A stretch of 20,000 nt of DNA from an uncultured virus (IMG/VR IMGVR_UViG_3300017772_000002) (lineage: Duplodnaviria; Heunggongvirae; Uroviricota; Caudoviricetes). The position numbers were made by a program, and so were the translations under genes. The notes beneath the pieces were generated by a model, which saw nothing but the letters and a program-made list of their open reading frames with translations, was not told the DNA's origin and made no database searches. Shown here piece by piece: positions 3,099 through 14,250 of the stretch (position 1 is its first letter; every line of letters starts with the position of its first letter). Location: IMG/VR virus record IMGVR_UViG_3300017772_000002, one strand, 5' to 3'.

Positions 3099-3674
3099 TT
3101 ATACCATAAATAATTCTAGTTTTTCTCGTTCTTTCTCAATCTTAGCAAACTCTTTAAGTTTAGCATCCTTGGTTCTAATTTGATCAATACGAGCTCTTAA
3201 GGTATCTACGTACTCCATAGTTTGAGCAGCACCATTATCATCCATTCCCATAGCAGCAAAATCTTCAATACCCATCTTTTCAATATATTTAAATTTTATT
3301 TCTTGTTGTTTCTTCTCTTTGGTAATACGCCTAATAAATGCAAAGAAACAAATTTGAGTAAAATAAGAAAATGCATTTGGATTACCTGTTCTTGTAGCAG
3401 TATCAATATTATAGTTATTAATAGCTCTCAAACAATTTTCAACTCCATCCATAACCATTTCTTCTCTATAAGTGTACCGAACGAAGTTCGGTCTGTGAGA
3501 CAGTCCTTCCGATATTTTCATGAAACAAGAGGCAATATAATTGGTTACCTTTGGGATTTCTTTTTCAGCTTCTTTTGCTGCATTTACAGATTTTACATAC
3601 TCAACAACCGCTAAGGAAAATTCCTTATTGTTCACATAATGTGGCTTAGCTTTCGGTTTGATTTTTGTGGTCAT
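3099..3674 (-). CDS. gp55: Late-transcription sigma factor
   Basis: HYVNNKEF, HRPNF..YTYREEM..DG.ENC and NAFSYFTQIC..AF.RRI.KEKKQ motifs typical of gp55; AGGAG SD. Confidence 0.96.
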   Translation of the reverse strand: MTTKIKPKAKPHYVNNKEFSLAVVEYVKSVNAAKEAEKEIPKVTNYIASCFMKISEGLSHRPNFVRYTYREEMVMDGVENCLRAINNYNIDTATRTGNPNAFSYFTQICFFAFIRRITKEKKQQEIKFKYIEKMGIEDFAAMGMDDNGAAQTMEYVDTLRARIDQIRTKDAKLKEFAKIEKEREKLELFMV

Positions 3675-3846: not shown

Positions 3847-4221
3847 TTAATGATAGGTTGGTTCAATGTCTTCTTCATCGTCTGTATCATCATCTAATGC
3901 ACGCTCACCTTCGAGTTCATAATTATGTTTACTAAATTCACCACGTATGAGCTCTTGACAAGAATATTTAATGTATGATTCCTTTGTCTCTTCAACTACT
4001 TCTGTATGGTTAATCACAAACCTTTTCATGATCTTAAACACCTTTTTATCGGAAAACGGAAACCAGTCACCAAACGTAAACATTCCATCTGATGATACCT
4101 GCACGACCGCAGGTCGTTCTACGATAAACGCATGCTCATTTGAGCTTTGAACATAGCAAATAATATCTTCGCTATTTGTAAGTTTAAAATGTCTTATATC
4201 GACTTCTTTAATAGTTTCCAT
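3847..4221 (-). CDS. Hypothetical protein between uvsW and gp55 (possible Sm-like beta fold, acidic tail)
   Basis: FKLTNSEDIIC.V...P N-terminal pattern recalled from small marine T4-like proteins at this locus. ATG directly follows the uvsW stop. Confidence 0.75.
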   Translation of the reverse strand: METIKEVDIRHFKLTNSEDIICYVQSSNEHAFIVERPAVVQVSSDGMFTFGDWFPFSDKKVFKIMKRFVINHTEVVEETKESYIKYSCQELIRGEFSKHNYELEGERALDDDTDDEEDIEPTYH

Positions 4222-6282: not shown

Positions 6283-6741
6283 TTAACTAATATCAAAGTA
6301 TGTATACTTTAATGTAACATCTGCTTGTAAGTATTCTACTTCAGTTTGTTGAGTAGAAAATTCAACAGCCGATAGACTTGTTGGAAAGCAATCTTTAAAC
6401 GTTACTTCTTTTGTAACATTATTGTGACTACTTAATATAGCAAGAGTTGCATCTGATTTTTGCCCCTCACCTTTTTGTATAACATCATGCATCCAGTTAT
6501 ACATCTCAATATAATTTTCCATATCTTCGGTAATATTAAATCTAATATTTAATTCGCCAAAAGTCATACGATCGCCAGTCATACCCATATTTGATGTCTT
6601 ATATGGTAATGGAACTTCTGATATAGATAAATCTGGAAGCGTGACAGCAGTACAAAAATACTCAATATTAGAATATTTTGTTGAATCTATTTTGAATTGA
6701 AACCCTACAGGGCTTAAAAAGTTTTTATTTAAAGTAGCCAT
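6283..6741 (-). CDS. gp3: Tail completion / tube terminator protein (gp3-like, tube fold); true start most likely ATG at 6741
   Basis: MATLNKNFLSPVGFQF... and F.D.FPTSLS...F motifs; canonical position after gp23. The 23-aa extension in the ORF track starts at a TTG inside the structured RNA. Confidence 0.88.
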   Translation of the reverse strand: MATLNKNFLSPVGFQFKIDSTKYSNIEYFCTAVTLPDLSISEVPLPYKTSNMGMTGDRMTFGELNIRFNITEDMENYIEMYNWMHDVIQKGEGQKSDATLAILSSHNNVTKEVTFKDCFPTSLSAVEFSTQQTEVEYLQADVTLKYTYFDIS

Positions 6742-6746
6742 ATATC

Positions 6747-6754
6747 TATTTATA
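6747..6754 (-). promoter_or_regulatory. Late promoter of gp3 (predicted leaderless mRNA)
   Basis: TATAAATA-GATAT-ATG: only 5 nt between box and start codon, and no SD. Confidence 0.8.
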
Positions 6755-6773
6755 CAAGTTTGAAAGTTAAATT

Positions 6774-6869
6774 GAAGCAATGTGCGGTATCTTCCTCCGC
6801 GTACCCGCAACCAAGGCAGGATCTTAGTCTCTTCGTAACCTTTGTCACTTCTAGATCAACACTGCTTCT
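6774..6869 (-). ncRNA. Putative ~95-nt late-expressed structured RNA of unknown family
   Basis: 10-bp closing stem GAAGCAGUGU (6868-6859)/ACAUUGCUUC (6783-6774) enclosing two further stem-loop arms. GC-rich relative to other spacers; own TATAAATA promoter immediately upstream. Confidence 0.7.
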
Positions 6870-6873
6870 ATAT

Positions 6874-6881
6874 TATTTATA
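6874..6881 (-). promoter_or_regulatory. Late promoter driving the putative ncRNA
   Basis: Exact TATAAATA just downstream of the gp23 terminator and 5 nt before the first base of the closing stem. Confidence 0.8.
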
Positions 6882-6886
6882 CACAT

Positions 6887-6914
6887 AAAAAAAGGGACTC
6901 CGAAGAGTCCCTTT
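6887..6914 (-). terminator. Rho-independent terminator of the gp23 transcript
   Basis: AAAGGGACTC-TTCG-GAGTCCC-TTTTTTT: GC stem, C(UUCG)G tetraloop typical of T4 terminators, 7-U tail. Confidence 0.95.
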
Positions 6915-6940: not shown

Positions 6941-8314
6941 TTAGCTTGATGCAGGCTGAGTCATAATACCGTCTACTCTAAAGATTCTAAAGTATGGGTT
7001 AGATCTGTCCGCACCAACTGTACCGTCAGTAGCTACAAATGGGTTAGCAACCATGCCGTATCTAGTTTTGAAACCGATTCTTGGCTGGAAGTCTTCCTCA
7101 CCGATCGCTTTAACCATTGTTAAAGGAACGTATGGGCAGTAGAATACACCTGCGTCATATGGAGTAGTACCTCTGTAACCTACACAAACGTAGTCCTGGT
7201 TAGTACCACCAGCATACGGATCAACGTATACTTTGAACTTACCATTAAGAACACCAGCAAAAGTATTACCAGTATCATCTACGTTTAGGTTAGTTGCCAA
7301 TGCTGGGCTATAGTCAAGCATACCAGAAGCAGCAAGTACTGAAGCAACGTCAGAAGAACAGATTACATAGTTACCTTTTCCTCTTCTTGTTTCTTTAGCA
7401 ATTACATTAGCTTCTCTTTCGATTTGAATAATCAAACCTTTAGCTTTTTCAGCCAACCATCTGCCGTCTGTGTCAGTAGCCATGTTAAAGATACCTTTAA
7501 TAGCGTTAGAAGCTTGACCAGCACCTAGCTTAGCAGTTCTGTTTACAGTTCTAACAACTTCTCTGTTGATTTCCGCAAGGATTTCAGAAGAAAGGATGTT
7601 AGCAAGCTCGCCTTCAGCGTCTAGACCGTGGATTGCTTTAAGATCTTGAGCAAGTTCCATAGTGTATTCAGCTTTAAGAGCTCTTGACTTAGCAGTTACT
7701 GTAGCTTTCTCGATTGAGAATGCCATTTCACCGAATGAACCGCCTGAACCACCAGTACCTAGAGCTTCAGAAGCAGCTGTAGACATACCAGCTGAGTAAT
7801 CAGAAACGATTTCACCAGCAGTTTCGTTTGTGCCTAAGTTATTATCACCGTTATCAACAGCTGTTTCTAGACCAGAAGGACCTGCTTCTTGAGCTGTACC
7901 ATGGCCAGAGAATGCAGTGTTTGCTTCGTCCATGAAAGCTTCAGTTTTTGTAACTGTGCCGTCACCAGCAACATTTACATACTTAGACTTCATAGCAAAG
8001 ATTAGACCAGTAGGACCAGTCATAGGCTGTACACCAGCGATATCGTAAGCGATAAGGTTTGGCATTGCACGTCTTACCAATGAGATAAGAACGGGATTAA
8101 AACCAGCTACTTCAGCGCCAGTTGCGTTATGAGGAGCGTCTTCTCCAAGGAAGGTTCCTGATTTAGCAACAGCATCTTCTCTAGCTGCGATTTCTTGGTT
8201 TTCAAGAAGTCTAGCTGTAACAGCTGCTTTATGACTATCTTGAATTGTTGGAACATCTGTGTGCTCGAGAACCGGGCTCCACTTTTCCATTAAGTTTTTG
8301 TCTGCGTTAAACAT
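6941..8314 (-). CDS. gp23: Major capsid protein
   Basis: LISLVRRAMPNLIAYDI.GVQPMTGPTGLIFAM, KSRALKAEYT.ELAQDLKAIHGLDAE.EL, YCPYVPL, FQPRIGFKTRYG. Likely gp21 cleavage site after FLGE58. Confidence 0.99.
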   Translation of the reverse strand: MFNADKNLMEKWSPVLEHTDVPTIQDSHKAAVTARLLENQEIAAREDAVAKSGTFLGEDAPHNATGAEVAGFNPVLISLVRRAMPNLIAYDIAGVQPMTGPTGLIFAMKSKYVNVAGDGTVTKTEAFMDEANTAFSGHGTAQEAGPSGLETAVDNGDNNLGTNETAGEIVSDYSAGMSTAASEALGTGGSGGSFGEMAFSIEKATVTAKSRALKAEYTMELAQDLKAIHGLDAEGELANILSSEILAEINREVVRTVNRTAKLGAGQASNAIKGIFNMATDTDGRWLAEKAKGLIIQIEREANVIAKETRRGKGNYVICSSDVASVLAASGMLDYSPALATNLNVDDTGNTFAGVLNGKFKVYVDPYAGGTNQDYVCVGYRGTTPYDAGVFYCPYVPLTMVKAIGEEDFQPRIGFKTRYGMVANPFVATDGTVGADRSNPYFRIFRVDGIMTQPASS

Positions 8315-14236: not shown

Positions 14237-14250
14237 TATTTATATAAATA
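14237..14250. promoter_or_regulatory. Late promoter of gp18 (minus, 14237-14244) overlapping a plus-strand TATAAATA (14243-14250)
   Basis: Palindrome TATTTATATAAATA. Confidence 0.8.

Follow-up and report, generated by a model that had tools for sequence, protein, structure and literature searches.

A tRNA-shaped RNA between the capsid and tail completion genes of an uncultured T4-like phage is a member of a widespread, apparently uncatalogued family

Positions 6774..6868 on the minus strand of the window (the whole stretch of DNA analysed, 20,000 nucleotides from an uncultured virus) hold a 95-nucleotide element for an RNA with the shape of a tRNA, located between the genes for the major capsid protein gp23 and the tail completion protein gp3. 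It belongs to a new family of phage tRNA mimics, absent from Rfam 15, that is widespread in aquatic phages and apparently uncatalogued. The element is very probably a real non-coding RNA derived from a tRNA. A first-pass annotation of this DNA had placed a dedicated, structured RNA gene with late expression here. The letters and coordinates it quoted are all present in the sequence, and a dedicated late gene is still what is predicted, on the evidence of covariation among relatives, a late promoter box of its own and an end stem that begins at, or in one case one base from, the predicted +1 in the copies between gp23 and gp3.

The window is part of the genome of a T4-like myovirus and its genes, all on the minus strand, include those for neck, terminase, sheath, tube, portal, protease, scaffold, gp23, gp3, UvsY, UvsW, late sigma factor and SbcCD-like proteins. 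The upstream neighbour of the RNA is the gp23 gene (6941..8314, minus strand; PHROG 138, E 7e-154). On its 3' side lies an intrinsic terminator hairpin followed by a run of U (6891..6914, minus strand); one such terminator was found where 0.2 are expected, and the hairpin is also present in most of the gp3-linked relatives that have enough upstream DNA. The T4-type late promoter of the cargo slot, TATAAATA, is located at 6874..6881 (minus strand). According to the accessible text of PMC2988020, the T4 late box starts at -13, so the predicted +1 is G6868, the first base of the end stem. There is a second late promoter, for gp3, at 6747..6754 (minus strand), as the first-pass annotation had noted, and by the same rule from the same text its +1 falls on the A of the gp3 ATG. 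The gp3 gene itself (6283..6741, minus strand; PHROG 45 and annotated gp3 homologs) is about 37% identical to its best cultured match. With the ATG five nucleotides past the box, as in all five copies of the gp23–gp3 slot, its late mRNA is predicted to be leaderless. The same arrangement, a late box with an ATG five nucleotides downstream at the predicted +1, is seen on the minus strand at both 6754–6739 and 4234–4219, and a leaderless late mRNA is likewise predicted for the open reading frame at 4221. An 8-bp TATA box starting at -13 and a gene for the late sigma factor gp55 (3099–3674) are both present in the window, consistent with a T4-type late transcription unit. The window contains nine TATAAATA boxes, against 3.56 ± 1.86 in shuffles, and eight of the nine are on the coding strand. 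Contigs from four expression runs are evidence neither way on transcription: a 455-nt contig from one run, probably DNA, covers 6368–6822, and in the other three the element is uncovered. The nearest record to the window is a 6.3-kb fragment that contains neither the element nor a tmRNA.

The element has a GC content of 49%, compared with 34% in the window, and matches the family model with 108 bits, the model including an identical copy (locus L001, which is not independent). Its parts, all on the minus strand, are described here with tRNA numbering. The 5' strand of an acceptor-like stem, P1 (6859..6868), forms 10 bp with the 3' strand (6774..6783), after which no CCA is encoded. Residues U8 and G9, the 5' strand of the D stem (6856–6853), A14 and G15 follow (6851..6858), leading into an enlarged D loop (6826..6850). 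This loop is composed of two purines, an inserted hairpin (6848–6835), the tip of which is variable across the family, and a purine-rich strand ending in ARACU; in two members it reaches 84 nt. Next come A21 and the 3' strand of the D stem (6821..6825), pair 11–24 being U-A in 55 and A-U in 38 of 93 aligned sequences. An anticodon-like arm with a free loop, of 2–9 nt across the family, occupies 6804..6820. It is connected by three nucleotides, YAC (6801..6803; the variable loop, with C48), which are UAC in 97 and CAC in 5 of the 102 members, to a T-like arm (6784..6800). The latter has a stem of five positions, with A.A at 53–61 in the window copy, and a seven-nucleotide loop, GGAAGAU, in which positions 54 and 58 take particular states across the family.

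The family was collected by pattern scans of viral and metagenome contigs, which gave at least 115 distinct matches to the 3' pattern in at least 282 loci. Membership was then defined by the 3' pattern together with the 5' core and at least six of seven P1 pairs, leaving at least 102 distinct sequences in at least 269 loci; the 13 matches dropped are chance matches, one truncated copy and four matches in prokaryote genomes. The family is larger than the 102 distinct sequences among the matches listed. A scan of 185,579 prokaryote genomes revealed no full copy; none of its four pattern matches has the 5' core, and the best family-model score there is 24 bits, at a site picked by the pattern. 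No copy was found among cultured phages by blastn with the window stretch and two divergent members, nor by the family model on phages Melnitz, Phosso, C48C1 and T4, a set of four without a positive control. At the gathering score, Rfam 15 gave no match on the window or on the element in 20 member loci, so that the family which the first-pass annotation did not recognise is not one of those in that collection; matches at E <= 10 are weak and driven by the terminator. A beta_tmRNA match starting at the element in L392 and L419 aligns to the unpaired 5' flank of that model and to an insertion, which does not amount to homology. Likenesses to SAM-I, twister, twister-sister, hairpin, HDV-like, SRP and yjdF RNAs, judged by consensus features, were dropped for lack of an Rfam match.

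For the comparison of structures, 93 of the 102 members were aligned with MAFFT, leaving out four with long inserts and five near-duplicates or truncated copies. In this alignment the cloverleaf is paired in 90.8% of cells, compared with 66.5% in shuffles and 32–40% with slid partners, and 22 of its 28 pairs change on both sides. The covariation score is 0.639 versus 0.188, scores that are inflated by the relatedness of the sequences, with P1 also part of the membership filter. P1 is 92.8% paired with ten of ten pairs covarying, which upholds this stem exactly as it had first been drawn; the anticodon-like stem is 97.4% paired (five of five covarying) and the T stem 93.1% (three of five). The D stem is paired in all sequences and contains the one pair that switches between U-A and A-U. 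The inserted D-loop hairpin is paired in 65.7% of cells of the alignment, in which one subgroup is shifted, and has at least four pairs in 81 of the 102 members when these are parsed singly. Given no structure, RNAalifold returned P1, the D stem and both 3' arms, plus two pairs that extend the D stem. By this evidence the structure of the family is under selection, with compensatory change in every helix, and the fold is a four-way cloverleaf in tRNA order: a long acceptor-like stem, U8 and G9, a four-base-pair D stem, R14 and G15, a large loop with its hairpin, A21, the anticodon-like arm, YAC, and a T arm with five base pairs and a seven-nucleotide loop, stacked directly on the end stem.

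The first-pass annotation had advised comparing the fold with shuffled sequences and seeking compensatory changes in homologs. The 95-nt segment folds with z = -2.42 (three of 200 shuffles are as good) and the opposite strand with z = -0.99, and the stems are kept with compensatory changes in the 93 aligned relatives, once the inner fold is corrected. The fold it drew is 82.7% paired overall and, in the window, 4–5 kcal/mol less stable than the cloverleaf. Within its second arm, the inner hairpin 6848–6835 is retained, and the outermost pair, 6857–6820, has to be given up, being broken in 53 of 93 sequences. Its third arm is paired in 66.7% of cells only, two of its pairs being broken in 73 and 62, respectively, of the 93 sequences. 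The supposed single-stranded linker belongs to the anticodon-like hairpin, 6820–6816 with 6808–6804, of which it makes up the 5' strand and loop.

The order of acceptor, D, anticodon and T arms is that of a functional tRNA, and with class I tRNAs (with the D arm of the Glu type) the family has in common the helix order, U8, the four-base-pair D stem, A21, the connector with C48, the five-base-pair T stem and the seven-nucleotide T loop. It differs in having no anticodon, no CCA, a long end stem and an altered elbow. The anticodon-like loop is most often six nucleotides long (45/102); a seven-nucleotide loop occurs in 19 members, with 15 different sequences, and no anticodon is conserved. In place of a 7-bp acceptor stem with free discriminator and CCA there is an end stem of usually nine or more base pairs, positions 0 and -1 being paired in 91 and 87 of the 102, and CCA is encoded in one member. 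From the loop of 2–9 nt, the near-absence of CCA (1/102) and the stem extending beyond 7 bp in most members, it follows that the RNA can neither decode nor be charged as encoded. The T-psi-C loop and the G18 G19 elbow are also lacking: UUC is present in none of the 102 T loops, position 18 is A in 99, and A18 and R19 replace the two guanines. There is no covariation between positions 19 and 56, so the elbow pair of tRNA has been lost, which weakens the role as a tRNA mimic. Of the core contacts U8-A14-A21 and G15-C48, residue 14 is A in 68 and G in 34 members, and this G could still pair with the U that ends the D loop; residue 15 is G in 99, where it is pairable with the C before that U; in three members U15 breaks G15-C48. 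This alternative pairing with the end of the D loop fits equally well, and a longer, kinked helix may have taken the place of the contacts U8-A14 and G15-C48.

Across the family the T loop reads GGNRGAU or UGWRAAU, with positions 54 and 58 G/G in 92 members and U/A in 10, and never mixed, though the search pattern allowed mixing. On a quick tree from a short alignment this switch needs four changes, two of them forced by strong branches. The tmRNAs around 32 parsed spacer copies have the same two states (23 G/G, 9 U/A), and eight of the nine U/A tmRNAs carry a G/G cargo RNA, so the loops of tmRNA and cargo are not matched phage by phage. When only 5' patterns were used, a 3' test of structure alone was passed by 16 of 208 matches, every one of which has both YAC and a family T loop; the conservation of these two features is accordingly not merely an effect of the search pattern. 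A model built from the family only and run unfiltered on 14 loci gave 20 non-family matches with E <= 5, of which 11 coincide with tRNA or pseudo-tRNA genes in the same orientation; real tRNAs score low with it, at 9–24 bits with rough E-values. With a relaxed threshold, ARAGORN called one member as tRNA-???. When 19 isotypes were compared with the family core, tRNA-Glu was best, on three parsed genes of 128 and with all scores negative, so that a Glu-type parent is a lead only. The best tRNA-like match of the family model is a pseudo-tRNA near a family member, at L468:1010-1082 (-), which has a Glu-type D arm, a six-nucleotide anticodon loop and a canonical T loop; it possibly resembles the ancestor of the family.

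Of the 102 members, 38 are inside the spacer of a permuted tmRNA, 15 are near a tmRNA gene, 37 are near tRNA genes and 12 have neither context, several of these coming from short loci. Five are in the gp23–gp3 slot, with P1 starting at the predicted +1 in four and one base off in the fifth. These five form one clade (SH-aLRT 95) that adjoins a tmRNA-spacer copy (92), and two of them begin with the closing-stem start that is commonest in tmRNA spacers (14 of 32), which suggests a move from the tmRNA spacer into the late slot, the direction being unproved. Both slots are exchangeable. Among 41 tmRNA spacers in the examined loci, a sample biased towards carriers, eight contain other cargo instead of the RNA, and in three of the examined loci (L107, L425 and L538) the RNA is absent from the tmRNA spacer and located elsewhere. 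Of 29 regions upstream of gp3, two have the RNA, one of them the twin of the window; the others contain an ORF of 64–67 residues, an ORF of 72 residues, a short two-box spacer or a single box. Two boxes alone are thus no proof of an RNA gene, as some of the regions with two boxes have other content. The 64–67-residue ORF, which has a lipoprotein-like signal, is located in the late slot just upstream of gp3 in L004-L013, L026, L028 and L029, and the unrelated 72-residue ORF in that of L019, L021 and L022. Enlarged tmRNA spacers, in which the RNA takes up only the 3' part behind another segment, are found in L492, L429, L453 and L481. Neighbouring ORFs include T4-like gp59, gp32 and RegA at some loci, and no recurring partner gene was found among 134 ORFs scanned (of 168 non-redundant) in loci of about 2 kb on each side.

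Several known RNAs show similarity to the family, the bacterial Y RNAs most of all in the way it would work. The Y RNAs YrlA and Yrn1, as described in the accessible text of Chen et al. (2014, PMC4201824), are likewise non-coding, non-decoding tRNA mimics of about 100 nt with nearly invariant D and T arms, and also occur in phages, YrlA RNAs in 22 of them. In the present family there is no Rsr motif (0/102), and no Ro60 gene was found within the roughly 2 kb scanned on each side; the arms, unlike those of YrlA, are in normal tRNA order. A hairpin is inserted in the D loop, and the T loop is of the G54/G58 type. The intervening sequence of permuted tmRNAs (RF04321/RF01849/RF01850) is related by position, since 38 of the 102 members fill that spacer, and by the T-loop variants shared with tmRNAs. 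An intact tRNA-Ala lies inside one such spacer, according to the part of Nawrocki et al. (2025, PMC11915505) available; the family differs in not being an intact tRNA, in having a conserved core of its own and in occurring also outside tmRNA genes with its own promoter. Phage Melnitz has a two-piece tmRNA (PMC9004378, accessible text) and, by the family-model search, is without the RNA. The family is not tmRNA itself, which would have a G3-U70 acceptor with CCA and a tag reading frame: G3-U70 is present in 3 of 102 members and CCA in one, and the window has no tmRNA match. The T4 species 1 and 2 RNAs (rnaC, rnaD), manA and GOLLD are similarly stable or predicted phage RNAs in tRNA clusters. 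The family model does not match rnaC or rnaD; manA is directly downstream of four of 20 members scanned (3–45 nt, in the tRNA clusters of L372, L404, L440 and L441) and GOLLD is near two, with no overlap with the element. No published description of the family was found in the literature searched, which covered few subscription papers, and the accessible texts of PMC9964418, PMC9004378 and PMC5737381 do not describe it. Fremin et al. (2023, PMC10690425), in the accessible text, report a covariation set from IMG/VR in which five candidates overlap tRNA calls; a motif search of three of the six supplementary files and a contig-name search of four of the six gave no match, and one of the 8,495 candidates may be this family, unnamed.

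The reading we favour is a tentative one, namely that the family consists of stable RNAs, derived from tRNAs but able neither to decode nor to be charged, that would be made late and act as decoys. That the RNA acts in trans is probable; the decoy mechanism, which may or may not be right and on balance is somewhat more open to doubt, is the weakest step. In the phage of the window, the gp55 polymerase would transcribe the RNA from G6868 and its 3' end would be trimmed near the stem, and in other phages it would be released by processing of the tmRNA spacer or of a tRNA precursor. It would work in trans through its shape, presenting the core and T arm of a tRNA or tmRNA and lacking the parts that are cut or modified, i.e. 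the anticodon loop, the UUC of the T loop and the CCA end. The host protein occupied by the decoy would be one that attacks tRNA or tmRNA or turns them over; a defence nuclease directed at tRNA, or a decay nuclease, is the likeliest candidate. Selection is seen on the core, the T loop and the end of the D loop and not on the letters of the anticodon-like loop or end stem, which argues for a folded surface kept for a partner. The elbow is changed by the hairpin inserted in the D loop, by A18 and R19 and by the T loop GGNRGAU or UGWRAAU, and the RNA is transferred whole among tmRNA spacers, tRNA clusters and late-promoter slots. For cutting in the T loop, a Schlafen defence nuclease of prokaryotes depends on U54 and U55 (PMC13462974, accessible text); no link of the RNA to a particular defence system was found. 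That such uncuttable look-alikes of tRNA or tmRNA, with a rebuilt elbow and late expression from a tmRNA spacer, a tRNA cluster or a promoter of their own, are RNA-only inhibitors of tRNA-targeting antiphage nucleases is a rather doubtful extension; if true, it would amount to counter-defence by RNA, aimed at the translation arm of bacterial immunity.

Rather than acting as a decoy, the tRNA-like fold could be a cis-acting element that guides RNase P or RNase E to their cutting sites in precursors of tRNA and tmRNA, or else shields the 5' end of a gp3-UvsY-UvsW read-through transcript. This is improbable, if the least so of the alternatives: 90 of the 102 members are in or near tmRNA or tRNA genes, some 3–12 nt from the end of a tRNA, and no terminator was found 3' of the RNA in the window, but the RNA is missing from eight of the 41 carrier-biased tmRNA spacers and present elsewhere in three loci with such a spacer, 27 of 29 gp3-upstream regions lack it, and in the gp23–gp3 slot it starts at its own predicted +1 with nothing upstream to cut off. 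The stem of the family also exceeds 7 bp, with 91 of 102 members paired at position 0 and 87 at position -1, a 7-bp stem being a major RNase P determinant according to the accessible text of PMC4201824. Slightly lower still we place a catalytic or ligand-binding RNA, a self-cleaving ribozyme or aptamer with its tRNA topology shared or rebuilt from tRNA, whose D arm, shaped like a kink-turn, would dock on the T loop. Many junction and loop letters are invariant, two adenines, invariant or almost so, lie on either side of the inserted hairpin, in line with the kink-turn consensus, and a self-cutter would suit a spacer that needs to be opened; no ribozyme or riboswitch of Rfam 15 matches, however, there is no common downstream gene, and tRNA ancestry explains both the 54/58 switch and the in-register matches on tRNA genes. 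Much the same low probability is given to a partner of the phage tmRNA system, binding SmpB, tmRNA or a tmRNA-specific nuclease and tuning trans-translation. A tmRNA gene is in the examined locus of 53 members, a G54/G58 loop with a 3-nt connector ending in AC is common to the RNA and tmRNAs, and 24 of 27 letters of a D-loop insert recur in one phage tmRNA lineage; against it are the 37 members among tRNA genes with no tmRNA in their locus, and the D stem and anticodon-like arm that the RNA keeps, a space that SmpB fills on tmRNA. The 24 letters are in the helix-2 strand of the tmRNA at L031:1493-1519 (+), also in L036 and L041-L043, and in the insert of member L447, though by eye the pairing differs; the likeness would go back to past recombination or to chance.

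A functionless passenger, a decayed tRNA tolerated by processing enzymes, would be in keeping with the patchy presence in exchangeable slots and with other degenerate tRNAs in the same clusters (L468), but it leaves unexplained the compensatory change in every helix, the invariant non-tRNA letters across 102 variants and the preservation behind a dedicated promoter in five copies with diverged spacers. Covariation largely refutes it, and we consider it very unlikely. That the RNA is a Y RNA of the Yrn1 type, which has a long end stem besides its D, anticodon-like and T arms, and is a ligand of a Ro60/Rsr protein is hardly credible: Yrn1 admits a drawing with a D arm, a T arm and an anticodon-like arm whose loop has six nucleotides (PMC4201824, accessible text), the commonest loop size in this family, but the motif GNCGAAN0-1G is found near the 5' end of none of the 102, no TROVE domain is present among the 134 neighbouring ORFs (loci of about 2 kb on each side, against a criterion of about 4 kb), and no Y RNA of Rfam matches. 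Equally remote are the functions that the first-pass annotation had envisaged, a CsrA/RsmA sponge, a Shine-Dalgarno mimic or a regulatory gp3 leader. CsrA recognises the core ANGGA, and sponge RNAs repeat it in several hairpin loops. GGA is present in 88 of 102 T loops, partly forced by the search pattern, yet ANGGA is in none of the T arms, there is a single loop, and the U/A variants do not have GGA. As for the mimic, GGAGG is in 28 of 102 T arms only, and the loop behaves as a tRNA T loop. A TTG in the 3' strand of P1 is in frame with gp3 in the window, but in four of five copies a stop or a frame change interrupts this extension; with the gp3 ATG immediately past its own box and 97 of 102 relatives located away from gp3, the leader falls away as well. 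The CCUU pseudoknot also suggested would involve a stretch that is a variable stem-loop, with no three-base match to the T loop in 84 of 102 members.

The family adds a well-supported and widespread phage RNA with a tRNA core and an unusual arrangement of D loop and T loop. The window copy predicts that tRNA-like cargo of tmRNA spacers can stand as a gene with its own promoter, from which it can be argued that the cargo is selected as an RNA and not only as filler or cutting signal. An RNA of about 95 nt with 100 natural variants is immediately open to synthesis, probing and testing, and it offers a way into the question why tRNA-like RNAs without decoding capacity are retained by large phages. 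Some other elements in the window and in the loci of its relatives deserve mention. The tRNA-Glu genes of L097, L369, L383 and L422 have A instead of U at the start of the T loop, another departure from UUC. At L105:1489-1568 (-), and also in L115 and L122, a different RNA-like element has a similar end stem and a G/G-type T arm, with another core. Downstream of a late box that lies between gp19 and gp20 in the window there is a hairpin of 9 bp with a purine-rich, Shine-Dalgarno-like strand (11916–11870, minus strand), which does not match the GP20 motif of Rfam. Between the terminase and sheath genes, at 14250–14237, TATAAATA boxes overlap on both strands.
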